The notes: generated by a model not told the origin, from the letters alone. Shown: positions 6,583 to 62,943, counted from the stretch's first letter. The stretch is 64,000 nucleotides of DNA from Phoronis australis (GCA_002633005.1 NMRA01000298.1:171887-235886); one strand, 5' to 3'. A program made the numbers and translations.

Positions 6583-6784
6583 TTCCGCCGGTGCCGTCAT
6601 AGGTAAGATCAACAACATTCGTGTCCATGTGAGCGTAAATACCGTCTATGGCACCAGGGCTTGAACAGTCGTGACCGTCAAACCGCACCGTGTAGCGTAG
6701 TGCGCCTTCTGGGTAAATGCAGATGTTGGCTAGGAACAGAACTCGTATGGCGGTGTCCGTTGCTCTTTTGTAGTAATAGAACGT
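6583..6784 (-). CDS. Gene A exon 8: core of CTHRC1-type domain 2; gene continues beyond the left edge
   Basis: 202 nt, phase 0 to 1: TFYYYKRATDTAIRVLFLANICIYPEGALRYTVRFDGHDCSSPGAIDGIYAHMDTNVVDLTYDGTGG. Window positions 1-440 are homologous to gene B intron 49370-49790, so the next exon is expected a few hundred bases outside the window. Confidence 0.88.
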
Positions 6785-9193
6785 CTGAAATTAATAGGTT
6801 ATCGGCGTTCTCAAAGGAAAATGCGACCCGATTTAAATATTATTAGAACCGCCTTGATCTGTCTATATCCGAATCACCTCGTGGACAGACGATCTCACCT
6901 CGCCGAAAGATATCGCGTTAACCTGTGAAGAAGGTGATTACACGACGCAGCTACGCCAGTGGTTCTTCAGCTGAGTGTGTGCCGCTATGTTGGGGCGCAT
7001 TGTTCCTGTTTGTGCGAAGCATGACGCTGTGAGGATAGCGGGTATATTGTTTTCTTCGATTTCTTCGAGATCCCGAAATGCTTCGGAAGTGGTTCCCGGC
7101 AGTAAAAAATGAAAAGTACACCGTTAATACGAATCACGAAGCCTTGAATTATCTCCGTGTCTCTGGCCGTCAATGTTCCGTTTCAAAATGAGTTGTTCCC
7201 ATCCTAACCTAAATGTAATGTTTATGCAAAACTGAAAAAAAGCTCTGTCTCAGTAGTGTTCGTGAGAACAAATATTTTGAGACTGACATCAACAATAAAG
7301 AGATAACATACTGAGTCACTGGCTTGACTGAGATTCAATAAAACTAATTTCCCACCGTGTGAGCGCATACTGATTCAGTTTTTTCTGACAGAAGGACTTA
7401 GTGAAAATATAACTCCATTTCATGTGCTAAGGTCAGATGTTAGTAGAATTTTTATTTATTTACATAGATGTATATACACTATTCAAATCACTGTTATTGT
7501 ACCACTTTTTCCTGCATGGTTCTGTGGAAAGTGAGCGGTCCCCGACGAGTAAGTAGAATTGTAATTTCGCGGCGATATCACCAAAATATTCACAAGCACA
7601 TTATTCTTTGGTTCCCTAGACTAGTGTTTTTGTGACTGGAAGTTTAGTTTACGACTTTCGTAGCCGACTAACCCGGCTGTTTGATGTTCGGGTTCCGAAC
7701 TGCTGGGTTATAGCGAGCGTTTTGTGTTTAGAACTGAAAAAATCGCAAGTCTAAAAATACAACACACGTCTATGCTCTACTGTCTGTATTTGACGGAAGA
7801 ATAAGTCGAATTCATCATCAATCAGACCTTGGTAAATTGGCCTGCAAAACTAGGCAATGGTGTGTTAAAATTTTTTTATCAGTTCGTAAGAGCGAAATAC
7901 ATGTAACAACTCATTTGCTTAAGAACCCAATGTATTTGCGAGATTATTACATCGGCTATTAATGATTTATTGGTGTAAAACAATGAATTCAAACTATACG
8001 CTGACACCAATAAACGTCTTGCGAACTGTTGAGCAGACTGTGTTACAACATGTGACGTCATAGGTCAGCAACTCGTCCGCCGTCGTCCTTTAGCGATACA
8101 GTTTAAAGTGTTTAGTATTGACAAAGGTGTCCCATCAACGATTTCTAGTGAGGGAAATGAGCCATATATTGTATACATGTAAAAGTTTTGTGCAAAAGAA
8201 TGGATCGTGATACACGTAGAACCGATAGTAGCCTGTTTCTAAGTCAGCAGTCCTGTCGACTTTATATTACACAGTTTGACAAGAATTTTCAATCACCTGA
8301 CTTTACAAAAATAACTTCACTCTTCTTGTTTATTTAATCTTTTACCGTGGTTACTTTAGAGAATATTTCAGAAGAAATGACCTCTGTGTATAGGATGATG
8401 TGTCTCACTCATCAGAACACTTTTCTTCCTCTGAGATGACTTTTTGAACAGGCCATCCCTTTTGGATCTCGAAATGGTAGCAACAATGTCTTTCTTGTTA
8501 TTAGAGAATGTGTCCATTGGTTTGAGTGGTGCTTGTTGCTTTTGAAAAATACGCTGGATCAATGCCCTCGATTGTAGTAAACAAGTATTGGTTATGGGCG
8601 TTATTTGGGGATCACGTAGAATATTGAAATATACGTTTGTAGGACCTTATCGACAAGTCCGTGTATTGAACCCAATATCAGCAAAACCCTTGTCTTTAAC
8701 TCAATGAAAGTGTACATTTTTGAAAGAAGAAAGGTTTCGACATTTAATCAATCTGTCGCTAGTTGGGTTACTGGACTGTATCTTTTTATTAAAATCGAGC
8801 GCAAATGAAAGGTATATTCATAGCAGAACAAGGTTAAATGCGAAATCTGAAAAACTCTGAAGCTTTCTTAACATACTTTCAGTTTCACGAAATGCAATTT
8901 TCAATCTTTTCACAAAGGTAATTAAAGTCATATTTTGATACCCCTCATTCAAAGGTGAAACAATTCAAAAAATTCTAACTGGATGTTGGAGAATGCTGCA
9001 CGAACGATATCATCTTTACGTTACCTATGAATCCAGTCAGCAATATCTGAGATATGATGTTCCTAAGTTATCAAAATCTGGACATCTCCCTAGGGTTCTA
9101 TAAAGCCTGAACTCCACTTCATTAAGGCATGCCTGATGACACAGGGCTGTTCACAATATGATGAAGTATTCAACGACTGTTGTTAGCTAAGGA

Positions 9194-9332
9194 CATGGGC
9201 AGCGCACCATAGGGTGCTGGAGGGTTATAGCCCCACTTTTTCAGTGCTGCGTCGTCCGTGGTCTATGGCAGATGCACAACAGGGTGGCTGGAGGGGCTTT
9301 AACTCCCCAGTTAATTCAGTGCGGCGCCCATG
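9194..9332. mobile_element. 139-bp MITE with 14-bp TIR and probable 5-bp TSD
   Basis: CATGGGCAGCGCAC ... GTGCGGCGCCCATG, flanked by AAGGA and AATGA. The paralogous site near 51645-51660 is empty (GCT-AATCA-TTACTTAC). Confidence 0.7.
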
Positions 9333-9345
9333 AATGAGTACTTAC

Positions 9346-9428
9346 GTAAATATGACCATTGTCATCCCCCCTTACACCAGTCCACGTGAACTGCTTGATG
9401 TTTAATCGTGATAACTTCGGACAGGTTC
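9346..9428 (-). CDS. Gene A exon 7: start of CTHRC1-type domain 2
   Basis: 83 nt, phase 1 to 0: (G)TCPKLSRLNIKQFTWTGVRGDDNGHIY, compare CTHRC1 NYKQCSW...DLGKI. Acceptor is AAG (CAG in paralog), donor GTAAG. Confidence 0.87.
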
Positions 9429-9599
9429 CTTGAAGGAAAAATACATGTATTACGCACAGTTTAAACATACGGAAAAGTAGGCTATAAATAAGAAACGGCA
9501 TACCATTATCTTGAACTGTTCACTGACGAAGGCAGTTACCAATCCCGATGGTCTTAAATACAATTTGTTTTCCTTAAAAAGTAAACTAGCAACAAAACT

Positions 9600-11060: not shown

Positions 11061-11163
11061 CAGAGTAGGAGTGATCTTAGCCTTATCTTTGCTAGAGGTA
11101 ATTAAATCAACATTTCTGAATGAAATACAGTGTAAACAACTTTCGTAATTCACGATTTCTCAC

Positions 11164-11331
11164 CTGGACAATTTCCCCATCGTCGGTCGTTGTCATAATC
11201 AGAGGTGGTTGAACACCACGGTTGGTTATGGTTCATCATAATACAATCACTGTACGTCACGGCCTTGTAAACGAACGGAAACGTGCACGATGATCCACCA
11301 GCATTACCGCCGTAAGTTGGCAGGTTAATTT
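11164..11331 (-). CDS. Gene A exon 6: fibronectin type II (FN2) domain
   Basis: 168 nt, phase 1 to 1: GGNAGGSSCTFPFVYKAVTYSDCIMMNHNQPWCSTTSDYDNDRRWGNC, the canonical FN2 CxFPF...WCxTTxxYDxDxxWGxC signature. Not in the ORF track. Confidence 0.93.
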
Positions 11332-12417
11332 CTGCGAATTAAATGTCTTAGAAATGTAGTAAAGTAGATCCCGTGGGCGATTCAGTAATTTTGTATCACG
11401 TGTCATACTAGTGAAATTTGTTGAGCTAAACAGACAATTATGAGTGTTAAGCTTGGTCCATCAATTTTGCCGAATACAGTTTAGTTGATGGCATGTAATA
11501 AAATGAATTTGTAATCGATCAGTTAATAAAATGGTCAAGTATGGTGCCTGTGATGTGTCCTTAATCTCGAGTGGTTGTTGAACCGCGCTTCGCGGTCCAC
11601 TGACCGATTGTTTCATTCAGAGCTAGCACATGTGTAAAATGATTCCAACTTGATCAAATAAGAAGTGATTTCTGGTCTTCGAAACAACTGTCAGTTTGTT
11701 TGTTTTTTGAGATTATTTTTGGTGCACGAAGTGAAAAGCCACAACATTCGAAATTTATAACCTAACTTTTAGCAATAACGATCTGATTATTCTAACAAAT
11801 CTCTGAAATCATCGGTTCCAGTTGGAAGAACTTGACAACTTGACACAAATTTCATAACGGAATATGGTCTACATTAAAACACGTTTTTGATGAAACTGAG
11901 ATTTACAAAGCCTTAAAACTTTAATTACCAACATCTACTTAATAGGCTCTATCATTTTTGTCACTCTCCAGAGGTGTCGAAATTTTTAAAACACCTCACG
12001 ATTTTTTAAAATTACAAATTATAGCTGTATTTGGCCCTATGTACAGTGGCTGACTAATAACAAAAAATGAATTAATCCATTTATTTCCATACAGTCTCCA
12101 TGTACCGTACCTTAATAGAATTCGATTTCTCTTGCAAACAAGAATATCGATTGGGTTAGGCCAAATCCAGAATGAAACATCTAGGCATTGATAGTGACTT
12201 GGCATGGCCATCCAATTGACAATAATTTGAGATAGGGAGAGTCCAAAACGTTTTTTTAAGAATTCAATCTTCACAGCAAAACAGTGCAATACGCCACCTT
12301 AAATGCACGTTGGGGTGACGAACCTCCCTTGGCCTTCAGTTGAGTTACACAATATACGTAACAAAAGTGTTAAAACGCCTCTCAGTATCCAAAAATAGTA
12401 CTCATAGCCAAGGTTTA

Positions 12418-15914: not shown

Positions 15915-16082
15915 CGAATGACCGCCTGAGGTCGTTTTCTTCGACGGTTATGGACGCCCCCACATTACTATCCAATCCACCCCATCCTGTGTGAGAATTG
16001 CGAACACCAAATCCAAAGCAAGCACCAACGTTTAATTTGACGACTATGTCTCCCGCCTGTTCCAAATCGCAAATCCCGTCGA
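15915..16082 (-). CDS. Gene A exon 5: end of CTHRC1-type domain 1
   Basis: 168 nt, phase 1 to 1: (V)DGICDLEQAGDIVVKLNVGACFGFGVRNSHTGWGGLDSNVGASITVEENDLRRSF, compare CTHRC1 VEGLCEGIGAG...VGTC...STGWNSVSRIIIEEL. Confidence 0.9.
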
Positions 16083-16380: not shown

Positions 16381-16629
16381 TTTTATTTTTTTAATTGCAG
16401 GCGGTATGATACATGTGTACACGTTGTACCAGACGTGCGCAGGCCTCGCATGTGGTCCCATTGTACTGATCACCTTGAAATATTTTTATGCTTTATTGAT
16501 ATATAGTTAAAACCGAGCTGAGGAGCTAGAAGCCTGGCTTAAGGGTTTAGCAGTGTGACCTGGTGGGACTAGAACCCACGACCTTGAGTAAAGAAAGTGG
16601 GCACTTATCAACCAGGCCACACTGCCTCC
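16381..16629 (-). mobile_element. tRNA-derived SINE with 10-bp TSD
   Basis: A box TGGCCTGGTTG, B box GGTTCTAGTCC, A-rich tail, TSD TTTGTTACTT at 16371-16380 and 16630-16639. Absent from the paralogous site near 58875. Confidence 0.8.
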
Positions 16630-17999
16630 TTTGTTACTTGGTGAAATGACACTTCTCCAAGTATTTTGATTTTTCATATTTGTTGCTTTGTTTTGTTTTT
16701 TTTTGTTTCCATACTGCAGAACTTAATTTTTATTGGGTCAACGTGAAATTTGCCCACAAGATTTGTCTTGAAAATGGCTTGAGCTTATTTTTTGGATGAA
16801 ATCGGATACAATATGGCACTCAGTTTTGATTCTGGGTGACATAGGTGTTGGGAATTTTAAGATCTTTTTCTTTCAATACATCATTCCAAAGGCTGTTACA
16901 AATGTGACATTTTTTCTCTAGGTCTTGCCGTTCTCGAGATTTTCCGAGCACAGATCTCCAGTTAACTTAGTTTTTGTGCAGTGCACGTATGTTTGGCGAC
17001 CCTTGACGGATCTGTCTGATATTTGATATTCGGATAACGGTAGATCTTTTCATTCGCGCTGTGAATCCCGTCTCTTGAAACGACTGATCGTTGTTGCGAT
17101 ATTCTAGATATGCATGTACTTGTCAAATGACTGCTGTTTTGCTGACGACACGTTTGTAGCGGGACATCGTTACCATTTAAGATAGAGATCGCATTTTTCA
17201 TGCTGATCGACAACAACTTCCCGACAGTCTTTATTTATTCAGTAGTATTTTTGTTCTTGGACGAAATCAGATACAAGACAGCACTGTGCCGGAGATTTTT
17301 CGATTTTACTTTGCAGAGCTTTAGTCCCGCACACCTTTGACCCAACCTTTTCAAATTAGAAATCCAAGCATACATGCATCTCATCAAGGGCTATCTAATA
17401 CCTAATACACCGCTAATTTTTTATTAGATATACCAAGTGTCACTTTTCAGAGCGTTTTCACTTGTTTGTCCATACCTATCCGGTTGCATTCCAGAGTCTG
17501 TTTTGTCTGCCGCAGGCTTTTTATTAATCAATAGTATGTTCTAAAATTAGCCAGAAACTTTAAAATCAACGCATTAGTAAATAGCAACATATTGATCGAC
17601 GTTTCGGTTTATTGTCCTTAAACCATTAACAAGACAACAGACAATGTTTTTGATGGTATTTGCTCAGATATCTGTGCCGGTCGATCACCAATCTACGGCC
17701 TCGGGGTCTTAAAGATCTGTGTGAGCAACTGTTGTCGACCGAGCGGTTTTTCTCCAACAAATGTAATTCTACCCTTTCATAACCTCTATTTTTAGAGATA
17801 TTTCTCAACATAAAGATCCATATTGTCAGACAACATAAAAACATTGCTTCGTCAATTGCAGCTTGCATGCTTACATGTATGTCTCGTACCCACAAGCCCA
17901 TTTTTATGTCTTTCTGGACATGCGCAAAAGCAATGTAAATAACACTATGTGCAAGAAACAGGCATTTCCACGCTCACCCATTCTTAAAATAGCACTCAC

Positions 18000-18198
18000 C
18001 TTGGGCGGGACGATAATCATTCCTTGACGTGCCTTTATACCATGCTATCTCTATTTTTCCTGGAGAGGCACACTCTTGGTCGTTAAAGGTAAAGAACCAT
18101 CGGGAGCAACATCCGCGGCAGTTGTAACTTGAGCGAACGACGCCGCGAAACCTCACTCTCAACGAAGTGTAAGAGTACTGCTTCTTGTAGACCTTTGT
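18000..18198 (-). CDS. Gene A exon 4: core of CTHRC1-type domain 1
   Basis: 199 nt, phase 0 to 1: TKVYKKQYSYTSLRVRFRGVVRSSYNCRGCCSRWFFTFNDQECASPGKIE... aligns by eye to vertebrate CTHRC1 [39 protein letters not shown]. Confidence 0.92.
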
Positions 18199-18415
18199 CT
18201 GAAACAGTGCAGCATTTTTTTTGAAACTGGGAATTACGTGTATAATTACAAAACTTGTTCTACCTCCAGAGCAAAGAATTCTGGGACCTAAGCACTCAAG
18301 CAAAAATTAGTCATTCCGAATCAAATATAAACGAAGCATCGAAATTGGTTCGCGTATCCCAAGTTTCACACTCACTAAAGAATTACTAGATGTTTCTTTC
18401 AGAAGTCAAACTTAC

Positions 18416-18528
18416 CATTAGATTTCCGTTGTCAGTTCCGCTGTTGTAGTTGGTGTAATAATAGTGTCGGATATTTGCAACCGGAATTTCATCACATTCT
18501 TTGAAGGGGGCTGTGTTTGAGAAGAGAA
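18416..18528 (-). CDS. Gene A exon 3: linker plus start of CTHRC1-type domain 1
   Basis: AG/GTAAG, 113 nt, phase 1 to 0: (V)LFSNTAPFKECDEIPVANIRHYYYTNYNSGTDNGNLM. Paralog of identical length at 62831-62943. Confidence 0.9.
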
Positions 18529-22163: not shown

Positions 22164-22275
22164 CCACACAGATTCCGACGTTGTTAGTACAGTCTTTCAT
22201 ACAAGTCTGATCTCCACCCACGCAGTTGGCGTTCGTGCACTCGCTGCTGGTGTCCTCTTTGTTGTTGGTGTTGCC
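22164..22275 (-). CDS. Gene A exon 2: Cys-rich EGF-like module
   Basis: tttcAG acceptor, G|GTAAG donor, 112 nt, phase 0 to 1: GNTNNKEDTSSECTNANCVGGDQTCMKDCTNNVGICV. Not in the ORF track. Confidence 0.75.
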
Positions 22276-23506: not shown

Positions 23507-23902
23507 TTTGGCTGATTCAAACTTGCCAACTTTAATGCTGCTTCTGATGTTTCAGCCTCGGGTTAGCTTCGTCCTCATGACTACATCTGGTGGTAGCTTT
23601 CCTGGGAGACGTAACACCTTTGCTTACATTTGTAATTTCTTCCTAATAAGCCGGAATGCAAGCTGGATTACCCCTGCAGTACAACACGCATTCTATTTGG
23701 TTTCTAATGCCACACCTTTTCCCAAAGAGTGATGGTGAAAACGAACCAGATATATGAGGCGTAGTAGCACTGAATCTATGCCTTAACGCTGAGCACTTAC
23801 AGTGTATGTGTCGATTGTTCCGGCAAATAATGTTTCGAACCCGCAAACAAATCAGATGACAATATCTGCCAAAGCAAGTAATACGATGTTACGTTTCTTT
23901 AT
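23507..23902 (-). pseudogene. Decayed paralogous copy of exon 1 (signal peptide plus PAN/Apple)
   Basis: ETLFAGTIDT...ISGSFSPSLFGKRCGIRNQIECVLYCRGNPAC...CYVSQESYHQM aligns to 32858-33226. No ATG at the equivalent start, several stops and at least two frameshifts. Confidence 0.82.
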
Positions 23903-24063: not shown

Positions 24064-27000
24064 TTATTACTCTGCGCGTGAAAGCGCAGAGTATTGCTGT
24101 TCTACGTATTTTGACTTCTTATTACTATGCGCGTTCAAGCGCAGTTTTACTGTTCTACGTATTCTATCTTCTTATTAATTTGCGCGTGCAAGCGCAGAGT
24201 TTTACTGTTCTACGTATTTTATCATCTTATTCTTCTTATTATTATTGTTAATATTATTATTATTATTCTACCTTCCTTTTCCGATTGTTATTACTCTTAC
24301 ATCGACTCAGTTACAACAATCATATTCACTGTGATTGATATGATAGTTAAGGGATTTTTATTGATTATTTTTTTTACCCAAAACGCACTGGAATGACCTG
24401 AAACATGTCAAGGAGTGCATTCCGTCAAAATGCTTCTTCGTCTACGGATTTTTATATAGACTCTTTGAACTTTGTAAACAAATAGGGACTAAAGAAGTGC
24501 ATCAGAAATTTACACGGATTTCCTTTCGGACCAAGGGAACTGAGTTTCCTGGTCAAAGGTCATTAAGTGCAAAAGTGATTTTTGAGCTAGACTTTTCATA
24601 TTCATGCATGTGGCTTCTAGTCACCAGGGAAGTTCAATCGCAAACTTTTGGGTCGTTAGGTTAAACTCTGGGGTCATTTAATGCACTTTTTTCTTAAATT
24701 TCAGACTTTTTCAATCTGCTCATTCTTATATTATTCATTATTGAGAGGGTTCTTATTCATGGTGGTTCAAGCAATGGGCATTCTAATTCTATTGATTACT
24801 TGGGTTTGACTCAAAATGCACCGGAATGACCCGAAACGGGTCAAATAGTGCATTCCCTGAATTTGCTTCTTCTTGTACATTTTTTTAGATAGACTCCGAA
24901 TTTTGATAACAAGCAGATACTAGAGAAGTGCACCCGAAATTTACGTGGAATTTAAATAGGATAAAGGGAACCGAGTTTCCGGGTCAAAGGTCATTAGGTG
25001 CAAAAGATTGTTGAGCTAGAGCTTACACAATCGCGTATATTCTTTTCATTCGTAAAGGAAATTCAGTCACCAACTTTGGGGTCATTAGGTGCAGTTTTCC
25101 GTTGATATTCTTACTCTTTACTGTTGCTCTTTTATAGTTACCAGAGACATCTCTCTCTTTCACACAAAGGATGCAACTTCTATGCAGTGTAATGCTCCTA
25201 TACTTCACTATGCACATGCATACACCACGCACAGAGTTGTAAATGCGCATACGCAATTGCGTTATAGTTCTTATTCCTATTCTTCCTTCCTTTTCAGATT
25301 GCTATTACTCTTACGTCGATTTATTAATAACAATCATATTCACTGAGGTTGATACGATAATCAAGGGATTTCTATTAATGATATAGTTTGAACCCAAAAT
25401 GCACCGGAATGACCCGAAATGGGTCAAGGAGTGCATTAAATCAAAATGCTTCTCCTTCTACAGATTTTTAGATAGACTCTTCGAATTTTGTTAACAAGGA
25501 GGTACTAGAGATCTGCATCCAATGATTACTTGGAATTTAAATCGGATCAAGGGAACCGAGTTTCCGGGTCAAAGGTCATTCGATGAAAACGTCATTTTTG
25601 AGGTATACCTTTCATAGTCACGCACATGATTAACATTCATTAATGAAGTTCAGTCACAAACTGTGGGGTCACTAGGTGCATTTTTGGGGTCATTAAGTGC
25701 AGTTTTCTGCCAAATTTAAGACTTTTTTAATCAGCTTTTACTTACACGATACATTAGTGAGAGCGTTCATACTCATGGTGGTTCAACCAAGTACTAATCA
25801 AATTCTATCGATCACATGGGTTTGACTCAAAATGCACTGGAATGACCAGAAACGGGTAAAGGAATGAATTCTATAAATTCCTTTTTTCTTCTACAGGTTT
25901 TCAGATAGACTCTTCCAATTTTGATAACAAGCGGACACTAGAGAAGTGCACACGAAATTTACTTGGAAACTAAATCGGATAATAGGAATCGAGTTTCCGC
26001 ATCAAAGGTCATTAAGTGCAAAAGTGCTTTTTGCGCTAGATCTTACATAATCACGCATATAGTTTTCATTCGTAAATAAAATTAAGTCACAAAGTTTTGG
26101 GTCATTAGGTGCAACTGTGGGGTCATTAGGTGCAGTTTTCCGTTGATATACTTACTTTTCACCCTTGCTCTTAAATTATTACCAGGGACATCGCTCTCTT
26201 TCATACAAAAGATACAACTCCTATGCTATGTAATGCGCCAATACTTCAATACGCAAGTGCATACACCACGCGCAGTGTTGTAAGTGCGCAAACGCAATTG
26301 CATACTAGTTCTTCTTATTCTTATTCTTCCTTCCTTTTTCAGATTGTTATTACTCTTACATCGATTCGTTAACAACAATTATATTCATTGTGGTTGGTAC
26401 GATAATGAAATTATTTTTAGTCATTAGAATATTTTCATCCAAAATGCACTGGAATGACCCGTAACAGATCAAGGAGTGAATTCCCTTAAAATGCTTCTTC
26501 TTCTAGAGGTATTTAGACAGACTCTTTGACTTTTGTAAGTAGGCGCTAACGAAGTGGATCCAAAATTTACCTGGATTTCCAAGCGGATGAAGGGAACTGA
26601 GTTTCCGGTTCAAAGGTCATTAAGTGCAAAAGGGATTTTTGAGCTTGCATGTAATTACCATTCATAAAGGAAGTTCAGTCACAAACTTTGAGGTCACTAG
26701 GTGCAACTCAGGGTTCATTAAGTACAGTTTTTTGATAAATTTAAGATTTTTTCAATCAGCCTGTACAGGACTTACTTAATTAATAAGGGAGAGCGTTCAA
26801 ACTCATGGTGGTTCAACCATTTGCCCAACAAATTCTATTACTCACATGGATTTGACTCGAAATGCACCGGATTGACCGGAAATGGGTCAAGGAGTGCACT
26901 CCGTCAAATTGCTTCTCCTTCTACAGGCTTTTAGATATACTCTTCAAATTTCACTAACGAGCAGGCACTAGAGATCTGCATCCCAAATTTACTTGGAATT

Positions 27001-27908
27001 CCGATCGGATAAAGGGAACTGAGTTTCCGGGTCCAATTTCATTAAGTGCAAAATTGATTTTTGAGCTAGACCTTTCATAATCATGCATACGATTACAATT
27101 CAAAAAAGAAGTTCACTCACAAATTTGGGGGTTACTAGGTGCAACTTAGGGGTCATTGAGTGCAGTTTTCTGTTAAATTTGAGACTTTTTCAATCAGCTT
27201 GCACTTAAATTGATGCATTAGGGAGAGCGTTCATATTCATGGTGGCTCAACCAATTGCCAATCAAGTTCTATTGGTCACTTGGATTTGACTCAAAATGCT
27301 CCGCAGTGACTCGAAACAGGTCAAGGAGTGCATTCCGCCAAGTTATTTCTTCTTCTACATGGTTTTAGATTTTTGAAAAAGCAGGCACCCGTGATCTGTC
27401 GATCAGCTTCTATTGATCACATGGATTTGGCACAAAATGCACCGGAGTGACTCAAAACGGGTCATGGAGTGCATTCTGTCAAATTGCTTCTCCTTCTATA
27501 GGTTTTAGATAGACTCTTCAAATGTTGTTTACAAGTAGGCACTGGAGATCTGCATCCGTAATTTACAGGGAATTTACATCGGATAAAGGGAATCAAGTCG
27601 AAGGTCATTAAGGGCAAATTAGTGATCATTGAGCTAGACTTTCCATAATCAGGCATATACTTTTCATTCGTAAAGGATATTCAGTCACAGACTTTTGAGT
27701 CATTAGGTGCAAATGTGGGGTCACTTGGTGCAGTTTCCCCTTGATTTTCTTATTTTTCACTCTTGCTCTTTCATACTTACCAGGGACATCGCTTTCTGTC
27801 ACACAAAGTATGCAACTTTTATGCAATGTAATGCACCTATACTTCACAATGCTTGTGCAAAGACCACGCGCAGAGTTTTAAGTGTGCATACGCAATTGCA
27901 TTCTAGTT
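24064..27908 (+). mobile_element. Three nested DINE-1/Helentron-like non-autonomous elements with internal tandem repeats of about 430 bp
   Basis: Subterminal inverted repeat ACTCTGCGCGTG (24069-24080) / CACGCGCAGAGT (27865-27876), 5' hairpin, TTA/TTC microsatellite, 3' stem-loop. Three heads (24069, 24124, 24177) and three tails (25226, 26267, 27865). Internal units begin AAATGCAC.GGAATGACC near 24380, 24812, 25396, 25829, 26440, 26860 and 27292. Confidence 0.75.
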
Positions 27909-32857: not shown

Positions 32858-33226
32858 CTGATTTGTTATGAAGTTGTCAATTCTTATCTTGTTTCCAAGA
32901 TTTCTTCCCTGTTTCCTCGGTCTTCCCTGCGACTCCATATAGTGATAACTTTCCTGGGAGAAATAGCATATTCCTGTATTGTCTTCGTAGTAGGCCGAGG
33001 TGCAAGCTGCCTCTCTCCTGCAGTAGAGTGCGCATTCCATTTCACTTCTTGTGCCACTTCGTTTCGCGAAGTATGACGGTGAAAATGATCCTGTTATACT
33101 TGAAACAGAACAAGTAGATGCCAGTGAAATGGCCGAGCAGGTTTGGATTTTTTCAGCAAATAGTGTGTCAGATTGACCAAATTTAACGAAGTTTAAAAAT
33201 ACCGCTGTCCAAACGGACAAAAACAT
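32858..33226 (-). CDS. Gene A putative coding exon 1: signal peptide plus PAN/Apple-like module
   Basis: ATG at 33226, 369 nt open: MFLSVWTAVFLNFVKFGQS-DTLFAEK...SEMECALYCRREAACTSAYYEDNTGICYFS...NQ. The C-x3-C-x5-C...C spacing is PAN/Apple-like. Ends CAG|GTTAG, phase 0, matching the phase-0 exon at 22275. Joining across a 10.6 kb intron is inferred. Confidence 0.7.
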
Positions 33227-33906: not shown

Positions 33907-34063
33907 TAAGTTCAAGGTGAAGACTTCGTTGACCACCAGACGACGGCTGGATGGCAGCAGGTGTAAGCGTCGTTGTACATCTAGCAATAACCAGGACACG
34001 TCTGTGCTTACATGTTCAGTCTCATGTTAAAGCTTCATGCTGGAAGGTCGCAAAACCCGCCAT
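33907..34063 (-). pseudogene. Decayed copy of terminal exon 12
   Basis: Homologous to 41394-41539 (GGFCDLPA, QTCPGY, AYTC, RLVVNEVF). Acceptor mutated AG to AA, three in-frame stops and a frameshift. Confidence 0.85.
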
Positions 34064-37653: not shown

Positions 37654-37879
37654 ACGATGAAGCGTGATGTTGGCTATCATCTACATTGTCCGTTCGATGG
37701 AACAGTCTTTGATAGACTGTTATAGAAACTTTCCAGGCGCGTCGAACATTCGGCCCCATTGACGTCGGATACAAACGGGCGCATCCTGGTGGGTCTTAAG
37801 TCGACTCGTATTGTTGCAAAACATCGGTGAAGTGTCATAATAGTTCACTTTGAGGTGATTTTATTCTGTAGTTGACTGA
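37654..37879 (-). pseudogene. Decayed copy of exon 11 (CTHRC1-type domain 3 core)
   Basis: Same 226-nt length and AG/GTAAG ends as 47256-47481, but in-frame TGA and TAA plus compensating indels. VYQRLFHRTDNVDD still readable. Confidence 0.85.
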
Positions 37880-41393: not shown

Positions 41394-41539
41394 TTAGTTC
41401 ACAGTGAAGACTTCGTTGACCACCAAACGACAACTGGAATCCCAGCAGGTGTAAGCGTTGTTGTAGCTATAACCAGGACACGTCTGCACATAAAGCCTTA
41501 TGTTATAGCTTCCCGCTGGAAGGTCGCAGAACCCACCAA
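41394..41539 (-). CDS. Gene B terminal exon 12: end of CTHRC1-type domain 3 and stop
   Basis: tttttcAG acceptor, 146 nt, phase 1: (F)GGFCDLPAGSYNIRLYVQTCPGYSYNNAYTCWDSSCRLVVNEVFTVN then TAA at 41396-41394. Not in the ORF track. Confidence 0.87.
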
Positions 41540-43814: not shown

Positions 43815-44628
43815 TAACGTCATCGAACGTGAAAATAGAATGCATAGATGAGCACGCGCAACAATTGTATGTTTAGCAAAGAGCATTGTACCGACATTTG
43901 TATGCTATGAAAAGTAAGACGCATAATTTCCATAAAAACGATATTTTACTTAAGTGAAAATTTTCTCTCATGTTCTCTCACTTGTAAATCACCGATCTCT
44001 AATTTGAATGCGGGTATCGTGTCGTCGGGATACTTTGACTTGAGCATCAGACCAGTGGTAACCTACTTTAGCAGACAATATTTTTCCGATCGCAGCTTAG
44101 CGGGATAAAATTGTAGTAAGCCATAATAGTTGCTAAACCTTAATTTATAGATTCCCTTTATTTCTGTTTTGTATAGATTTTAAATTGGTTTTGAGTAAAA
44201 GCATTATTTGACAAAAATAGCTCGGCTTTTCTGAAATGGTCACGACCCTGGTTCTCTGACATACAAAAGTAGAAAGTAGTTACAAAGCCGAAGCGAGTCG
44301 AGAAAGGTAAATCGATTCATTGCAATGTTTGTTGTTCAGTGTGTGGTATAAATAGATTACTACATGTTCTCACTCGTTATTCCTCTTATCTAGAGCCGTC
44401 CTGGCGATAATTCGCCTAAATCCACTCGGGCTCTAGAATACGGGGGAAAACGACTTTGCCATGGCTGTACTTCTGGAGCAAGTTTTCGGTTATACAGAAT
44501 TGGTTAAACGCACGACACTTTTCATTGTTCACAGTCTTTATTCCGTTACGTTCATACCTGCGGAACAAAACTCTATTCTCAACTGAACATAGATAAAGTA
44601 ACTGATCTAGCGACATAATTAAAAGACA

Positions 44629-44666
44629 CACGATATTTCGAAGCATACTTGTTTCATTCTCAGGTG
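44629..44666 (-). ncRNA. Minimal type I hammerhead ribozyme motif in the Penelope pseudo-LTR (copy 1)
   Basis: CAC-CTGAGAA-tgaa(acaagtatgc)ttc-GAAA-TATC-GTG. CAC/GTG stem I and AUC cleavage triplet present; C3-A8 mismatch. Confidence 0.6.
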
Positions 44667-45213
44667 ATACCCCCACAGAGCATAAGCTGATGACACACAC
44701 ATTGGACACGGCGTGTGTGAAATACTGCAAAGAATGCTTAATGAATNNNNNNNNNNNNNNNNNNNNNNNNNNNNNGGGGTAACAGGAAAGTCACGCAAAC
44801 AAGTGTAACTTGCGGCGCGACCCTGTTTGCTGCTCATTCAAAACAGGCTTCTCAAAAGCAATTAAAAGGGTCTCTAATGCTTTCAATCGTAGCACATCAT
44901 GATCCACGTATATGTAGCGAATTGACGTGTTTTCCACAATTTCTTGACGGGTGACTTTACGTGCGTGACATTGCAGAGAATGGTCTTAGATGGCGCCTTT
45001 TTGAAGATGCATAGATAACCACCGGGGAAGACTGCAAACCGTTTGACCAATGTACCATTGTTTGACGTTTGAACGAAGACATTCGTTCATAGGGCATACA
45101 CATTCATAAACAACACTGCATTGTGCAACGGGACGAACTTTCGCTTTAGAAATGTTATTTTTCATGACCAAATTAGAGGACTTCCTATTCCGACAATAAA
45201 TAATAACATCAAG

Positions 45214-45448
45214 CAGAGGCAGATTTACAGGGCGTGTTCAGGGGTTAAAACCCACTCCCTCGGGACAGGATCAAAATTAAAAATTAAAAAATGGCCAGAA
45301 AAACGAAATCAGCTACTAAAAACCACAAAATATATTACACGGGAGGGAGGAAAGTCCCTCCCGACCTTCCTTCCGCTCGGCGCTACGCGCCTAGGATTCG
45401 CTCGAATTCCAAACCCCCACCCTTACTGAAAACGTAAATCTGACACTG
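45214..45448. mobile_element. 235-bp MITE inserted into the Penelope ORF
   Basis: TIR CAGAGGCAGATTTAC / GTAAATCTGACACTG, flanks TCAAG / TCGAG (possible 5-bp TSD). Penelope coding relic continues on both sides. Confidence 0.7.
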
Positions 45449-45711
45449 TCGAGGTATCAGGCTTACAAGCTTTAACATTATCCCTAATAATTTTCTTAAT
45501 GGCGTGTTCGTCCTGGATGTAATTATTGGACATGATGACATTTTTGTAAAATTGAATGAGCAGCAAACAGGGTGGCGCCACACTTGTTTGCGTTAATTTC
45601 CTGTTACCCCCCTTCATTAGTCATTTTTTGCAGTATTTCACACTTGCCGTGCCCCACTGTGTATGTCATCAGCTTATGCTCTGTGGCGGTATTACTGCGT
45701 CATTTTATCTT

Positions 45712-45749
45712 CACTTGAGAATGAAACAAGTATGTTGCGAAATAGCGTG
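45712..45749 (+). ncRNA. Minimal type I hammerhead ribozyme motif in the inverted pseudo-LTR (copy 2)
   Basis: CAC-TTGAGAA-tgaaacaagtatgttgc-GAAA-TAGC-GTG. U3-A8 core pair present; cleavage triplet mutated to AGC. Confidence 0.55.
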
Positions 45750-47255
45750 TGTCTTTTAATTATGTCGCTAGGTCAGTTACTTTATCTATGTTCAGTTGAG
45801 AGTAGAGTTTTGTTCCGCAGGTATGAACGTAACGGAATAAAGACTGTGAACAATGAAAAGTGTCGTGCGTTTAACTAATTCTTTATGTAATAATCTATAT
45901 ATTTTTCAGCCATTTTGAAATCAAACTCAACTCGTGAATACACCCGTTGCACCGGAGGTGCTTGTACAGCACACCCACATTATAAATCAGGTGTACATGT
46001 ACAAGTAACCATGTAGTAGGCCTGCGTTGAATCTCAGTTACCCAAGGGAACTGAATTTGAACTTCAGACGTTGAAGTGTGTACATTTTTGGGACACACTC
46101 TGTATCATTTCCCCCAGCAACGGGAAACAGGCTCTGTTTCATCTAAGGATTCTGAAACGGCCACAAAAGCACTCATACCAGTCACCTAGGGACCTCACCA
46201 TTCCAAAAAATATACTTCCAAGAATGGCCATTATGAAGTTTTCCCCGAAACTGGATCATAATAAAACAACCTTGCCTTTCAACCAAGAGCAGAGGAATAG
46301 GTACGATTCCACTAATGGAACCCAGCTATAGTTGCTTCACTCAGCTCCCAACTACCTGTCATTACGCTGGCCCTAGACCCATTCTTATTCTCCGTGAAAC
46401 TTTGTTGGTTCACGTCATTCAAATCGTGATGTCGGACGTGGGGTTTTGGTACAAATATGGAGACATACGGAGAACGGGGGAAGGAGGTGGTGATAGCAAG
46501 GGGCAGGTTGGCAAAGTCAAATTGGTTTGGGGCTCCCTAATATTTTTTCCTTCCAGCGGGCCTGGTAAAACATTAATTGGGTACCTTGATCACGTGTTTT
46601 AGTAAACCTTAGGGAAACATAAGATACATCCATAGGAAGACACCGATGTCAAGAACATGGGTAGAATTCGTTTGACGTAAATGTTCAAGACAGAATCTCA
46701 AAACGGTGTTACAATATTGTGAGTTTTCACTTGTTTACGTTTGATGCAAATTTTGAGCTTTCTCATAAAAGTTATGAAATTCATATTTTGATATCGCCTC
46801 GCACAAAAATCGAACACCTTAGTCGCATATACTAGTTGACTTACAGTGACTAATGCATAAAGCAATGTATTCGAAAGTGGTAACTGCAGTGGTCCACTTA
46901 TGGTTGGTCGTACGTCAAATGCAGAGACAATCGGGAATAAAAACTCACTGTGGTCTTAACCTTTCCGGACATTCTTTGCTTATTTTTTCTCGAACACGTT
47001 AAGCTACACCACGGCAAATCTCAAAGAGGTCGTGACACTGAGGCGTGAAATAAGTCGGCAACTGAAGGACCTAGCCAGAACGCCATAATTTGTCTCCGTG
47101 CAACCAGAAAGCACTCAGCCATGGGCTTGCATATACCTTCCTCATACCTGGGGAAGCTGACTGGGCGCATAGGTTTTTTATACTGTGCCATGCCTTTTCA
47201 ATTAGATATAGACGAACCAACTTAAAAAAGTAATGCAAAAATTGCTTGTACTTAC

Positions 47256-47481
47256 AAGATGAAGTATGGTGCTGGTTATCATCGACATTGTCTGTTCTGT
47301 GGAACAGTCTTTGATAGACAATAGTAGCAATTTTTCCAGGCGAGGAACATTCGACCCCATTAAAGGTCAGATACCAACGGGCGCAACCGGGTGTGCCGTG
47401 GGTTGACTCCCATTGTCGTAAATCACCGTTGTAATGAACAGATAGTAGACTTTGAGACGACTTCTTATTATAGGTTACCGA
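47256..47481 (-). CDS. Gene B exon 11: core of CTHRC1-type domain 3
   Basis: 226 nt, phase 0 to 1: SVTYNKKSSQSLLSVHYNGDLRQWESTHGTPGCARWYLTFNGVECSSPGKIATIVYQRLFHRTDNVDDNQHHTSS. Confidence 0.9.
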
Positions 47482-48150: not shown

Positions 48151-48257
48151 AATTTGCCCGACATGCCCGTTGTCTGTATTGTCGTTCAATGCCCACCACC
48201 ACCACTGGTGAAAGTTGTACTCCGGCAGTCGCTGGACGCTGGCGTCACGTGTCACGA
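48151..48257 (-). CDS. Gene B exon 10: start of CTHRC1-type domain 3
   Basis: 107 nt, phase 1 to 0, acAG/GTGAG: (V)VTRDASVQRLPEYNFHQWWWWALNDNTDNGHVGQI, with the N-x-x-Q-x-x-W...DNG motif as in domain 2. Not in the ORF track. Confidence 0.82.
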
Positions 48258-48866: not shown

Positions 48867-49019
48867 CTGCACTGACGTCTAGATCATAGCGGATCTCTTC
48901 GACAATAATTCTGTTTCGCTGATTCCAGCCCGTGTAACCATCCATGCTGCCATGGTACCTGGCGATATGTATCTCAATAGATCTCCGTCCTGCTCCGATG
49001 TTATTGCACAAGCCATCAA
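48867..49019 (-). CDS. Gene B exon 9: end of CTHRC1-type domain 2
   Basis: 153 nt, phase 1 to 1: (V)DGLCNNIGAGRRSIEIHIARYHGSMDGYTGWNQRNRIIVEEIRYDLDVSA, close to CTHRC1 VEGLCEGIGAG...TGWNSVSRIIIEEL. Confidence 0.92.
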
Positions 49020-50483: not shown

Positions 50484-50685
50484 CTCCGCCGGTGCCGTCA
50501 TGGGTGGCGTCAACAACATTCCCGTCCCAGTGAGCGTAAAGACCGTCTATGGCACCAGGACTTGAACAGGCGTGGCCGTCAAACCGCACCGTGTAGCGCA
50601 GGGCGCCTTGCTGGTACATGTAGATATTGGCCAGGAACAGTACTCTTATAGCCGTGTCACTTGCTCTTTTGTAGTAATAGAACGT
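50484..50685 (-). CDS. Gene B exon 8: core of CTHRC1-type domain 2
   Basis: 202 nt, phase 0 to 1: TFYYYKRASDTAIRVLFLANIYMYQQGALRYTVRFDGHACSSPGAIDGLYAHWDGNVVDATHDGTGG. Confidence 0.9.
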
Positions 50686-51660: not shown

Positions 51661-51743
51661 GTAAATATGACCATTGTCTTCCCCCTTTACACCAGTCCAC
51701 GTGAACTGCTTGATGTTGAATCTTGATAATTTCGGGCAGGTTC
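51661..51743 (-). CDS. Gene B exon 7: start of CTHRC1-type domain 2
   Basis: 83 nt, phase 1 to 0, ccAG/GTAAG: (G)TCPKLSRFNIKQFTWTGVKGEDNGHIY. Confidence 0.9.
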
Positions 51744-52016: not shown

Positions 52017-53698
52017 CCGACTGAGCAGAGGGCCGTCAGTCGAAGAACTTATGGTATCGGCGGCTTGAAGAAGAATTCCTCAAATGAATAGACTAAGGCC
52101 AAATAGAAACCGCTTTTTCACGACTCGTTTGAACTCGTAAATTAACTTTTGACTTAAAACACTAGTACCTCTATCAAAGTGGTCTACACATGTTCCGTGG
52201 AAAGATGAAATTTTGGTTTTAAAAATGAACTTAACTTTCGTTCGGTCTTTTCTCGTCGCCACTCTCGGCGAATAGAATGACAACATGTAGCGCATAATTC
52301 CAAGCTTAACGGACAGTTTCAAAGCTCGTAACTAAGCAACAACGGTTGACTCAGGAACTACAGTGTATATAGGTTCAACTCGCATGTAGGCAGCGTTGGA
52401 ATGAATGAGTCTTATCCGGGTCTCATTAGCCATCATTCTAGACGGTCTGCAATCGTTTTAGTCATGGAAACTTTCGGATTGGGCACAAGTTGCCTACATA
52501 CCCAAATCCCAGTAAAAGACGAGGTATTGCAATAAAACGCGACAAGTGAGCACCAAAAAGTACGAGTATTATAGAGATCCAATACATATCTCCAATCGCG
52601 TAGAACAACATGTTTGGTTGTGAATGATTAACCTGGCTAAACAATGCCTGATATATACAACAGGTACAACTTCATTTATTAAACGTATTTCTTTCGTTGT
52701 TGACAACGTTACTTTAGGTAGTGCCCAGGTGGTGTTCTTACAGGCAAAATCAAAGGCTTTCACATACCGGGGGGTCCTTCAAGAGAGGGTTGCGTGGCCA
52801 CGTGAAGGTTGACTTTTTTAACACCAAAGTCGCCAGGAAAAGGTGAGGGTGTCTGACNCCGACTGAGCAGAGGGCCGTCAGTCGAAGAACTTATGGTATC
52901 GGCGGCTTGAAGAAGAATTCCTCAAATGAATAGACTAAGGCCAAATAGAAACCGCTTTTTCACGACTCGTTTGAACTCGTAAATTAACTTTTGGCTTAAA
53001 ACACTAGTACCTCTATCAAAGTGGTCTACACATGTTCCGTGGAAAGACGAATTTTTGGTTTTAAATTGAACTTAACTTTCGTTCGGTCTTTTCTCGTCGC
53101 CACTCTCGGCGAATAGAATGACAACCTGTAGCGCATAATTCCAAGCTTAACGGACAGTTTCAAAGCTCGTAACCTAGCAACAACGGTTGACTCAGGAACT
53201 ACAGTGTATATAGGTTCAACTCGCATGTAGGCAGCGTTGGAATGAACGAGTCTTATCCGGGTCTCATTAGCCATCATTCTAGACGGTCTGCAATCGTTTT
53301 AATCATGGAAACTTTCGGGTTGGGCAAAAGTTGCCTACATACCCAAATCCCAGTAAAAGACGAGGTATTGCAATAAAACGCGACAAGTGAGCACCAAAAA
53401 GTACGAGTATTATTGAGATCTAATACATATCTCCAATCGCGTAGAACAACATTTTTGGTTGTGAATGGTTAACCTGGCTAAACAAGGCCTGATATATACA
53501 ACAGGTACAACTTCATTTATTAAACGTATTGCTTTCGTTGTTGACAACGTTACTTTAGGTAGTGCCCGGGTGGTGTTCTTACAGGCAAAATCAAAGGCTT
53601 TCACATACCGGGGGGTCCTTCAAGAGAGGGTTGCTTGGCCACGAGAAGGTGGACTTTTTTAACACCAAAGTCGCCAGGAAAAGGTGGAGGTGTCTGAC
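52017..53698. other. Probable assembly artefact: near-identical 840-bp tandem copies joined by a single N
   Basis: 52017-52857 and 52859-53698 with scattered substitutions (likely two haplotypes); N at 52858. Confidence 0.85.
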
Positions 53699-56038: not shown

Positions 56039-56612
56039 TTAACTCGTTAGTTGGTTGGATTTCCGCTTGATCTTGTCATCTGGAGTCGTCTATCGGAGAT
56101 TTGTACCATTCGATACTTTCAAAAGCTGAACTCGGAGGATGCCGCGTCTGAGGGCTCACAGCGGGAGTGTTCTTTATATTTGTTTTATCTCTATTGAATT
56201 AGATATTTAACTCCGTATTTCACTTGATGGATTGACATGTTTCTCGACTTACAGTGCTTCAGTGTACAACAGGGTACTATCATCTTTGCAGTCCTTAAGT
56301 ATAATACTTCAATGACTACCAAAGCTATTTTCATATCGTTGTCTGAGTGCCCCGCTACACTAAGCAGCTGGAGTACAGCATGAAGCCTGTTAAGCAAAGA
56401 TAAGGATTATGGCTTTTAGGCCAGGACGAACTGTACATGTACATGTATTTCAACCAAGATGTACATGACATTGACGAAGGTTGGATAATTTAACGACAAC
56501 ACACGAGACTCCACTTGGACTGGGATGGTTTTCTTGAAGTATACAGCAAATGAATTAACTCTTTTTCATGGAATACATGTGATAACAACCTTTGGAATTT
56601 ACGATTTCTCAC

Positions 56613-56780
56613 CTGGACAATTTCCCCATCGTCGGTCGTTGTCATAATCAGAGGTGGTTGAACACCACGGTTTGTTATGGTTCATCTTGATACACTCACT
56701 GTACGTCACGCCCTTGTAAACGAACGGAAACTTGCACGATGATCCACCAGCATTACCGCCGTAAGTTGGCAGGTTAGTTT
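56613..56780 (-). CDS. Gene B exon 6: fibronectin type II (FN2) domain
   Basis: 168 nt, phase 1 to 1: (E)TNLPTYGGNAGGSSCKFPFVYKGVTYSECIKMNHNKPWCSTTSDYDNDRRWGNCP. Confidence 0.93.
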
Positions 56781-58435
56781 CTGCGAATTGAATGTTTTTG
56801 TAAACATAGTAAACATAGTAAACATGGTTATTTGGACACTTCAGCATCTTTTTATCGGATGCCATATACCATTGAAATTCGTTGACCCAAACGGAAAATT
56901 ATGATTGATAAGCTTTATACTTCGCCAAATGCAATTTAGTTAGTGGCATGTAATAGAATGAATTCACAACCAATCAATGAATCAAAATGGTGGAGTAAGG
57001 AACACGTAAAGCGTGCGTAATATTATCAATGGCTTTAATTAGCGATTCGAGATCCACTAAACGAATGCTTGATTCAGACCAACAAAAGTTATGGGAGTGT
57101 TTAACATGTATTTTTTGGACCCAGTATAACGACACGTCTATTTTTATTTCCGGGTCCAAATTGCGACATCTACTGCCATGGCATGCCATCACTAAACATC
57201 CGAATCAAAATGCTTTCAACTAAGTTCCTCCGCACTCTGATAAGAAGTAATATCAGGGCTTGCAAACAAGTGTCCGTTTATTTTTCTTTGAGATAGGCGC
57301 ACAATACGGCACTCCATAACATTCGAAATTTACACCCTAGACTTTAGAAATAACGATCTGGTAATTCTTTCAAATCCCCGAAATCACCAGTCCTCTAGTT
57401 GAAAAAGGAATAATTTTAGACCAGTTAGCATAACGGAATGTGGTCTACATCAAAACATGCTTTTTGATGAAACTGGGATTAACGATGGCTTTAAAACGTT
57501 AATTACCGACATCAACTTAGGCTCTGTAAATTTCTTCAACCCTCAAATGTTTTGAAAAAGTTTGAAAACCCCTTACAATTTCTAAAAACCACAAATTCAA
57601 GCTGTATTTGACCCTGTGCACAGTGTCCGACTACGTAAATTCGAATTAGAACGTAGATGCATATTTTCATACATTCTACATGTATCGTACCTTAATCGAA
57701 TTCAATTTCTGCTGCAAACAAGAATATCGATTGGGTTAAGCCAACTCCAGATTGACGCATGTGCGAATTGCTTGGGACTTGGGATGGCCTCGGCCATTCG
57801 ACAATAATTTAAAACAGAGTGAGTCCAAAAATGTTTTAGATACGATTCCAATGTCCATATCAAAACAGTGCAAAGCGCCGCTTTAATTTCCAGTTGTGGT
57901 GACGAACCACGTTCCAGCTTCAGTTGAAATACGTGGTACAAATGTACTCAAGAAAAATGTTCAAATGTCTTTCGGCATTCAAAAATTGTACACATAGCCA
58001 AGGATTACCTCAAGATCAGTGTCCACACTAGGACAGTATGCGAGCGTTTTGATCAGCCTACAATGAATTGTTCGCGAGAAAGCTGGCTGCGTTGGAAGCT
58101 CAATGCTTTAAATTCAGCGGGCAATTTGATCACACAAGTGGATTTGTAGAACATTTGCTGGATATCAAAATGCCTGATACGTTATAGTGTAGCCAAGGGT
58201 TGTTGTCACCTGCTAGGCGTCCACTACTAGTACATTTGTATATACTGTAAAGTTAACCAAGTATTAAACCAGACAGGTACCACAACATCTTGTTTACAAA
58301 CATCAAATGAGATTCACCTCTCAACGATAGCCGTGATTCACTAAACATCCGTTTGGCTTCTGACGATAGGGCCCAGAAACTTTCGAAAATCTAAAATTAT
58401 TAAATAGAAGGACATTCCCCGTTGTGTAAACTCAC

Positions 58436-58594
58436 CGAATGACCGCCTGAGGTCGTTTTCTTCAACAGTCATGGACGCTCCCACATTACTGCCCCATCCT
58501 GTTTGGGAATCTGGCGCACTGTATCCGGAGCATCCACCCACGTTGAATTTAATGACTATGTCCCCAGCTTGTTGCAAATCGCAAATGCCGTCGA
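58436..58594 (-). CDS. Gene B exon 5: end of CTHRC1-type domain 1
   Basis: 159 nt, phase 1 to 1: (V)DGICDLQQAGDIVIKFNVGGCSGYSAPDSQTGWGSNVGASMTVEENDLRRSF. Confidence 0.9.
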
Positions 58595-61500: not shown

Positions 61501-62420
61501 ATGCTAAAACTTCGGATTCTGCCAGGTCTCGACTCTATCCGCAAGGAATTTCAACCAAGCAAACTAACTGTTTGGGACTTTTAAATTTGGACTTTGACGT
61601 TTTTAGCGAATTCTTCTTGTTTATAAATTCTTTGGGTTAAAAGTTAAAAGCTGCGATGTCGACGGAAGTTAGCGATGAGTTGTAAGTTTGTAGATTTGTG
61701 TTTCATAGATATTGCATAATAAAATTCAGTATATTTATCTTCACTCTTGTTTCACTCTAAGTTGTCACCATGGTTCTCTCGTATGCGATTCAAACGAGTG
61801 AAAAAGTACACAACGCTTCAAATATGTTTATCGGCTAAGAACAGTTGACATTTTAGAAACTAAGTAGATCGGTGCTGGCCGCTCCACCGATTCCCGTTAC
61901 AAGTACAACGTGACACAATTGTTCATTTTAAATCAGTTTTGGCAAGAATCTTGAATATCTAATCCAGCTCTGTCGTCTACCATTAAGAGCAGTCCATGGC
62001 TTACATTTGGAGGTCTCTAGCAGGCCCAACTCGGGAGTTTACTTTTTTTTCTGCCATAGCCTACAAGTGCATGTTCAGAAATATTTTTCATGTTTTTTTA
62101 ATGTGTACCTTCAATGACTAATTGGCAGCCACCCGGTCTTAAAAATAGTTCTGTTTGAGAAAGTGTTGTAGAAAGCGAGATCCTTCTCCAACCAATAATC
62201 ATCCGACCTCTCATTCCCTCAACGTGTACATACAAACAGCCGCATTTGACTGACTACACAGAGAAATAGTGCTTTGCCCATTTCTCTCATGCTCAAGTCT
62301 CGTGCCCACACGCCTACTTCATGGGGTTTCTCGGCACGTGCATTACATGTAGCAAAGCAAAACACAATGTTTCAAAGAAACTAACAATACGCACACACCA
62401 CTGATTAAAATGAAACTCAC

Positions 62421-62619
62421 CTTGGCCTGGACGATAATCATCTCTTGCCTTGCCCTTATACCACGCTATCTCTATTTTTCCTGGAGAGGGACACTCTTGG
62501 TCGTTAAAGGTAAAGAACCATCGAGAGCAACAACCGCCGCAGTTGTAACCTGCGCGAATGACACCGCGGAATTTCACCCTCAACGAAGTGTAAGAGTATT
62601 GCTTCTTGAAGGTCCTTGT
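62421..62619 (-). CDS. Gene B exon 4: core of CTHRC1-type domain 1
   Basis: 199 nt, phase 0 to 1, tttcAG/GTGAG: TRTFKKQYSYTSLRVKFRGVIRAGYNCGGCCSRWFFTFNDQECPSPGKIEIAWYKGKARDDYRPGQ. Confidence 0.92.
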
Positions 62620-62830
62620 CTGAAACATTGGCAGCAATTCGATAAAGTATAGCGGACTATATGTGCAGCACGTTTTTCTAGCTCCTGAACAAAGAAGTCT
62701 TATATGTATCTAAAGCGAAATCCAGTCACTACAAATCAAATATAAGCGGAACATTAGAACTGGTTCGGATACCTCAAGATTTACGCTCACTATGAAATTA
62801 CTAGACTTTCCTTTCAGAAATCAAACTTAC

Positions 62831-62943
62831 CATTAAAACTCCGTTGTCGGTTCCACTACCGTAATTGGTGTAATAATAGTGTCGGATATTGGCAACCGGA
62901 ATTTCATCACATTCTTTGAAAGGGGCTGTGTTTGAGAAGAGAG
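62831..62943 (-). CDS. Gene B exon 3 (first in window): linker plus start of CTHRC1-type domain 1
   Basis: 113 nt, phase 1 to 0, AG/GTAAG: LFSNTAPFKECDEIPVANIRHYYYTNYGSGTDNGVLM. Confidence 0.9.

Follow-up and report, generated by a model that had tools for sequence, protein, structure and literature searches.

Introduction

Why should an animal gene encode three copies of the CTHRC1 C-terminal domain (CTHRC1_C) in one polypeptide, and no collagen repeat? The question is raised by a stretch of 64,000 nucleotides from Phoronis australis (GCA_002633005.1, NMRA01000298.1:171887-235886; the window hereafter), in which tandem paralogs are predicted to encode CTHRC1_C repeats together with a PAN/Apple domain and a fibronectin type II (FN2) module. 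According to the available sections of Leclere et al. (2020; PMC7058181), CTHRC1 trimerizes via its collagen region, and its head has been modeled as C1q-like. We consider it probable that the P. australis paralogs encode a secreted protein in which the three CTHRC1_C repeats form a single-chain C1q/TNF-like trimeric head, as predicted from models of homologs. A first-pass annotation of the window, which had recognized the repeats, offered no reason for their threefold number or for the missing collagen; the models favor a single-chain trimer.

Two Tandem Paralogs on the Minus Strand

The window is animal-like DNA (GC content ~38%, 253 N), and in a self-comparison the regions 49.4-63.0 kb and 1-18.6 kb are diverged copies of each other. 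Eighteen exons were located, all on the minus strand, eight in gene A (33226 to 6583) and ten in gene B (62925 to 41394). Donors are GT at 17 of 17 sites (all exons except the last of gene B), acceptors are AG at 17 of 17 (all except gene A exon 1), the exon phases agree in both genes, and no in-frame stop occurs until the terminal TAA of gene B, which bears out the 18 canonical exons and two tandem paralogs of the first-pass annotation.

Gene A opens with exon 1 (32858..33226), which contains the ATG, a hydrophobic N-terminus and the PAN/Apple domain, followed by a Cys-rich linker module with five cysteines (exon 2, 22164..22275) that is conserved in Lingula homologs. Repeat 1 is encoded by exon 3 (18416..18510; first third, phase 1 to 0), exon 4 (18000..18198; middle, phase 0 to 1) and exon 5 (15915..16082; end, phase 1 to 1), the FN2 module by exon 6 (11164..11331), and the first third and middle of repeat 2 by exons 7 (9346..9428) and 8 (6583..6784). 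In gene B, exons 3 (62831..62925), 4 (62421..62619) and 5 (58436..58594) encode the first third, middle and end of repeat 1, exon 6 (56613..56780) the FN2 module, exons 7 (51661..51743), 8 (50484..50685) and 9 (48867..49019) the corresponding parts of repeat 2, and exons 10 (48151..48257, which includes a linker), 11 (47256..47481) and 12 (41394..41539, which includes the stop codon) those of repeat 3. The first thirds in A exons 3 and 7 and in B exons 7 and 10 were assigned by homolog alignment.

Exon 8 is the last exon of gene A inside the window, and window positions 1-437 match the intron directly upstream of B exon 9; gene A likely continues beyond the window start. No copy of gene B exons 1-2 was found in the window by tblastn, and these exons likely lie beyond the window end. 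Joined together, A exons 1-2 and B exons 3-12 amount to 2019 nt, or 672 aa plus a stop. An alternative AG 18 nt upstream of B exon 3 (62943) gives the 2037 nt and 678 aa proposed in the first-pass annotation; the open frame of that proposal stands, and its length gives way to the 672-aa form, which is preferred because the alignment to homologs is gap-free at the start of B exon 3, making the 62943 acceptor less likely.

One long gene spanning B into A is excluded, since the stop in B exon 12 matches the C-terminus of the homologs and A exon 1 has an ATG and a hydrophobic leader. The A/B pair is likewise excluded as an assembly duplicate: exon identity is 78-96%, and the synonymous (dS) and non-synonymous (dN) divergences over 301 shared codons are 0.32 and 0.08 (dN/dS 0.25), which indicates that the exons of both paralogs are under purifying selection. 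Three further minus-strand copies are decayed, namely those of exon 11 (37655..37879; two in-frame stops and a local frameshift), exon 12 (33909..34062; frameshifted) and the signal/PAN exon 1 (23520..23880, inside gene A intron 1; stops and frameshifts). The stops and frameshifts exclude these copies, at 37.8, 34.0 and 23.7 kb, as alternative exons.

Domain Content of the Predicted Protein

When single exons or segments of the window were scanned with Pfam, CTHRC1_C (PF25815) was found on 7 of 19 segments (E 2e-13 to 2e-4), and exons from all three repeats were matched. Exon by exon, the E values are 3e-13 (A4), 2e-6 (A5) and 3e-4 (A8) in gene A, and 4e-12 (B4), 2e-7 (B5), 2e-4 (B8), 5e-6 (B9), 2e-13 (B11) and 3e-6 (B12) in gene B. 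Both FN2 exons match fn2 (PF00040) at about 1e-17 (1e-17 in A, 2e-18 in B), and exon A1 matches PAN_1 (PF00024, E 6e-5) with 23.3 bits, above the cut-off of 21.4. These matches confirm the PAN, FN2 and CTHRC1 modules named in the first-pass annotation, and its statement that collagen repeats and a transmembrane helix are lacking holds as well: Gly-X-Y runs of at least four occur neither in the six frames of the window nor in the full-length homologs P0002 and P0003, and the highest 19-residue hydropathy mean, 1.08 at the moderately hydrophobic N-terminus, is below transmembrane strength, so that the predicted protein has no transmembrane helix. The hydrophobic N-terminus of exon A1, judged by eye, is likely a signal peptide. 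By contrast, the claimed EGF-like module could not be confirmed. The 37-aa Cys-rich exon has no Pfam match up to E 5, the spacing of its cysteines agrees with the EGF pattern in the first half only, and the predicted local distance difference test score (pLDDT) of this region is below 50 in homolog models.

Judged by their sequence, the window genes are not Cthrc1 in the strict sense of Leclere et al. (2020), namely a collagen repeat plus the C-terminal domain, because the Gly-X-Y repeat is absent. They share with the CTHRC1 family (PMC7058181; PF25815) the CTHRC1_C domain, lineage-specific tandem duplication, likely secretion and the predicted C1q-like head fold, but differ in having three diverged heads per chain, no collagen repeat, and added PAN, Cys-rich and FN2 modules. 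C1q (PF00386) has no match on the window exons or on 31 Pfam-scanned homologs; by sequence the protein is not a C1q-domain-containing protein, but its predicted mode of action is that of a C1q/TNF head in a single chain.

Homologs and the Novelty of the Architecture

A profile of the five middle exons, searched against 1.84 billion representative proteins, gave 514 matches at E up to 0.001. Among the best 150 of these 514, 25 proteins have at least two matching stretches, and 10 of the 25 have exactly three; the longer collagen-free proteins P0004 and P0009 show period-three repeats. The 31 homologs scanned with Pfam comprise these 25 multi-repeat proteins and three single-stretch proteins (28 together), plus three cluster members. 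PAN and CTHRC1_C occur together in 4 of the 28 (three Lingula anatina proteins annotated as ‘uncharacterized’ and the unnamed P0003), FN2 occurs in one of the 28, a collagen-bearing sponge protein that has four repeats, and the combination of PAN with FN2 occurs in none of the 31. Word-indexed searches, which are insensitive, returned no protein with one exon and two each with P0003 and alignment A5.

Residues 25-669 of the spliced model align to P0002, which is L. anatina XP_013395411 (30% identity, E 6e-79), and residues 59-668 to P0003 (32% identity, E 3e-75). Both alignments cover the Cys-rich module and the linkers, and the FN2 module stands out as a single large insertion; P0002 and P0003 follow the order signal peptide, PAN, Cys-rich module and three CTHRC1_C repeats, without FN2. 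The Lingula proteins XP_013395411, XP_013399537 and XP_013419939, together with P0003, thus share with the window protein a collagen-free signal peptide-PAN-(Cys)-CTHRC1_C repeat organization, the best two being colinear with it at ~30% identity, but FN2 is present in none of them, and they are database predictions without a described function in the papers searched.

A footnote to Table S3 of Leclere et al. (PMC7058181) records further collagen-free Cthrc1 C-terminal-domain proteins in L. anatina and P. australis, and the available sections of that paper contain no description of their architecture or tandem repeats. A PAN-3xCTHRC1_C architecture was not found described in the open-licence literature, a search that did not extend to subscription papers or to the papers in which the Lingula and Phoronis genomes were first reported; to this extent, the view that a secreted, collagen-free triple-CTHRC1_C family had gone undescribed is upheld. 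Its supposed restriction to one lineage fares less well, because several Lingula RefSeq proteins have the PAN-Cys-3xCTHRC1_C core; only the FN2 insertion is unseen in PAN-bearing homologs. The core architecture is already in databases, unstudied; the new elements are the FN2 cassette and the explanation in structural terms.

The sponge protein, Oscarella pearsei EP00118_P015510 (P0001), also has several CTHRC1_C repeats with FN2 between two of them, but it contains collagen and four repeats, lacks PAN, and carries FN2 between repeats 2 and 3. Its arrangement is likely independent of that in the window; its repeats group apart in the tree, with weak support. Other arrangements among the matches include two tandem CTHRC1_C repeats in the bryozoan Bugula neritina (P0014), a fusion of folate-receptor repeats with CTHRC1_C in Branchiostoma floridae (P0012), and a fusion of RING, TRAF zinc finger and CTHRC1_C (P0133).

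A Predicted Single-Chain Trimeric Head

AlphaFold2 models were made without templates for P0003 (8 sequences, predicted template modeling score (pTM) 0.70) and P0002 (63 sequences, pTM 0.74), and the three best Foldseek matches of both are engineered single-chain C1q and adiponectin trimers. In a VIA-align comparison of the P0002 model with 979 Foldseek chains, five single-chain/trimer entries were matched at Z 21.9-26.3 over 333-350 residues with a root-mean-square deviation of 3.3-3.9 A, across all three repeats, and the next match had Z 7.4. The matched trimers are engineered single-chain C1q, adiponectin and TNF-family (APRIL-BAFF) proteins, with 7-11% identity in the structural alignments. 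In the homolog models, then, the three repeats are predicted to pack as a trimeric head of jelly-roll domains. When the P0003 repeats were submitted to complex prediction as separate chains, the score was 0.20 against a mark of 0.34, and the alignment was not used in that prediction. With P0002, a sequence search of the PDB gave no match at E up to 1, and the ESM Atlas gave no usable match.

It is likely that triplication takes the place of collagen-driven trimerization, which would make the collagen helix unnecessary. One chain would then provide a head of three unlike subunits together with the PAN and FN2 binding modules.

Origin of the Three Repeats and of the FN2 Module

Every CTHRC1_C repeat is encoded by three exons with phases 1-0, 0-1 and 1-1, and FN2 is a 168-nt exon of symmetric phase 1-1 between repeats 1 and 2. 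We infer that this is the pattern expected of symmetric-module triplication and later exon insertion: a three-exon CTHRC1_C module flanked by phase-1 introns would have been triplicated, the three repeats would have diverged into unlike subunits, and the FN2 exon would have been inserted later into the linker between repeats 1 and 2. In a tree of 31 repeats, the repeats group by position with a minimum of three label changes, a value as low being reached in 0 of 200 shuffles. In a larger tree, built by a quick method, the multi-repeat proteins of bacteria and protists fall into a supported group of their own, and triplication has therefore likely happened more than once.

The FN2 exons of A and B are identical at 161 of 168 nt, whereas their flanking introns are only ~60% alike; six of the changes are non-synonymous and one is synonymous, so that dN/dS is not below 1. 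Within 11150-11345 and 56600-56795, one of 36 synonymous sites differs, whereas the remaining shared exons differ at ~50 of 161 (Fisher p 2e-4), and the near-identity stops just outside the splice sites. Recent gene conversion restricted to the FN2 exon is likely.

Evidence Against the Single-Chain Head and the FN2 Exon

Several observations weigh against the proposed single-chain head protein. The models are those of homologs of ~30% identity without FN2, not of the window's own protein. Single domains resemble TNF-like lectins (BC2L-C, PLTL) at no more than Z 6.6-6.7, values that may reflect a common arrangement, and these matches are suggestive only. Repeat 2 has three cysteines here, compared with six in repeats 1 and 3, several of the cysteines conserved in homologs being lost, and may be degenerate. 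Homology of the repeats by position is weak: in the repeat tree, support is modest, with 82/90 for repeat 1 and 67/63 for repeat 3, repeat 2 is not resolved, and in only 6 of 12 cases does the pairwise best score agree with repeat position. A window end truncates each of the two genes, so that the full-length protein is a chimera joined from both paralogs, and the Lingula-type order (PAN, Cys-rich module, three CTHRC1_C repeats and no collagen) is found in this chimera, not in one complete gene; the chimera is still credible as a full-length protein, because it aligns end to end with XP_013395411 and P0003. Finally, four RNA runs carrying the same species label, with ~18-19% of each raw run read and 14.5-34.4 kb (part of gene A) covered, supported none of the four predicted gene A junctions that could be tested, none of the 15 listed joints being a match to them. 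RNA depth in exon bins was 0 to 0.9, and most mapped reads were 90-95% alike and lay on repeats. For these samples, the data speak mildly against expression. In all four runs, RNA reads and contigs pile up on a short repeat at 16418-16630, with loose ends to either side; it is a transcribed interspersed repeat.

The gene model could also be wrong in part, with FN2 skipped or alternative, or one paralog a recent pseudogene, the product being of the Lingula type, PAN-3xCTHRC1_C. We regard this as rather unlikely. Skipping of the 168-nt phase 1-1 exon would keep the frame and yield the exact linker of the homologs, and the missing junction reads on the gene A side, the dN/dS of the FN2 exon and the three decayed exon copies within the cluster fit such a product. 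On the other hand, neither FN2 exon is damaged, the four cysteines and the consensus splice sites being retained in each, their near-identity stands against the divergence of the flanking introns, and 18 of 18 exons are open.

Possible Function

With a single-chain trimeric head, the protein would be a soluble recognition protein, the head of which may bind a ligand; the most likely candidates are glycans or molecules on the surface of microbes, cells or matrix. PAN and FN2 would add further binding or anchoring. This role is suggested by the duplication, decay and likely conversion in the cluster, and by analogy with triple-gC1q mussel proteins, which in the parts available of the respective reports bind bacteria, lipopolysaccharide and peptidoglycan (PMC5519582; PMC10672478). 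The bivalve triple-gC1q proteins (HcC1qDC6, CfC1qDC-2) and the engineered single-chain trimers have in common with the window protein, as predicted from the homolog models, three C1q/TNF-fold domains per chain; the bivalve proteins are secreted pattern-recognition proteins, but belong to another sequence family, C1q (PF00386), which is unmatched in the window. By this analogy, the binding or adaptor role suggested by the first-pass annotation appears plausible.

The same fold might instead serve a structural role, as a matrix adaptor that links collagen- or gelatin-like fibers, via FN2, to glycans or to the mineral-associated matrix of a shell, tube or cuticle. FN2 binds gelatin in fibronectin and in MMP-2/9. 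Vertebrate CTHRC1 acts where collagen is deposited (PMC7058181, available sections), and PAN domains are present in phosphate-shell matrix proteomes (PMC13425148, in part). This role nevertheless appears somewhat unlikely: FN2 is absent from the PAN-bearing Lingula homologs, and the available part of the PMC13425148 supplement lists no CTHRC1, PF25815 or XP_013395411, its two PAN rows (2 of 8 places) giving other accessions. A signaling co-factor role like that of vertebrate CTHRC1, with a pre-formed head presented to Wnt-Frizzled-Ror or TGF-beta receptors, would suit a true PF25815 member and the conserved family signaling role proposed by Leclere et al. (PMC7058181, available sections). We hold it to be improbable, because multi-copy, fast-diverging paralogs with decayed exons would fit recognition families better and because, according to the same sections, Lingula keeps eight collagen-bearing Cthrc1 genes besides the collagen-free ones.

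It is also tempting to speculate, as a possibility to be held tentatively, that natural single-chain CTHRC1 trimers form a family throughout the lophophorates and make up a diversifying secreted recognition system, in which triplication freed the head from collagen and allowed three unlike subunits to evolve within one chain. Such a system might play the role that multi-C1q proteins play in bivalves, where Cthrc1 has been lost, with modules such as FN2 gained by exon shuffling and spread between paralogs by gene conversion. It would also give, for the first time, natural access to the structure of the CTHRC1 head and to its ligand.

Other Features of the Window

Head-to-tail duplications at 34699-35830 (566 bp at 99%) and 52017-53698 (841 bp at 97%) have a single N at each joint (35265 and 52858) and are likely assembly overlaps, not real repeats. 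Intron 1 of gene A contains an array of diverged ~500-600 bp repeats, 72-83% alike (24250-27930). In intron 8 of gene A, broken open reading frames on the plus strand (3770-5300) match endonuclease/exonuclease/phosphatase (PF03372) at E 9e-4 and likely represent a decayed element of the long interspersed nuclear element (LINE) type. At 44490-45890, a pair of inverted repeats (370 bp, 79%) surrounds fragments with a faint GIY-YIG match (E 0.09), possibly a Penelope-like remnant.

Implications for the CTHRC1 Family

Human CTHRC1 is a much-studied marker of cancer and fibrosis. Its head trimer rests on modeling, and a natural single-chain version would be independent support for a C1q/TNF-like trimer. 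If the proposed head is correct, the collagen-free construct that such a protein offers should ease expression, crystallization and ligand screening. The locus would also present a clean case of exon shuffling, and suggests that brachiopods and their relatives possess a growing family of secreted binding proteins that has escaped notice.

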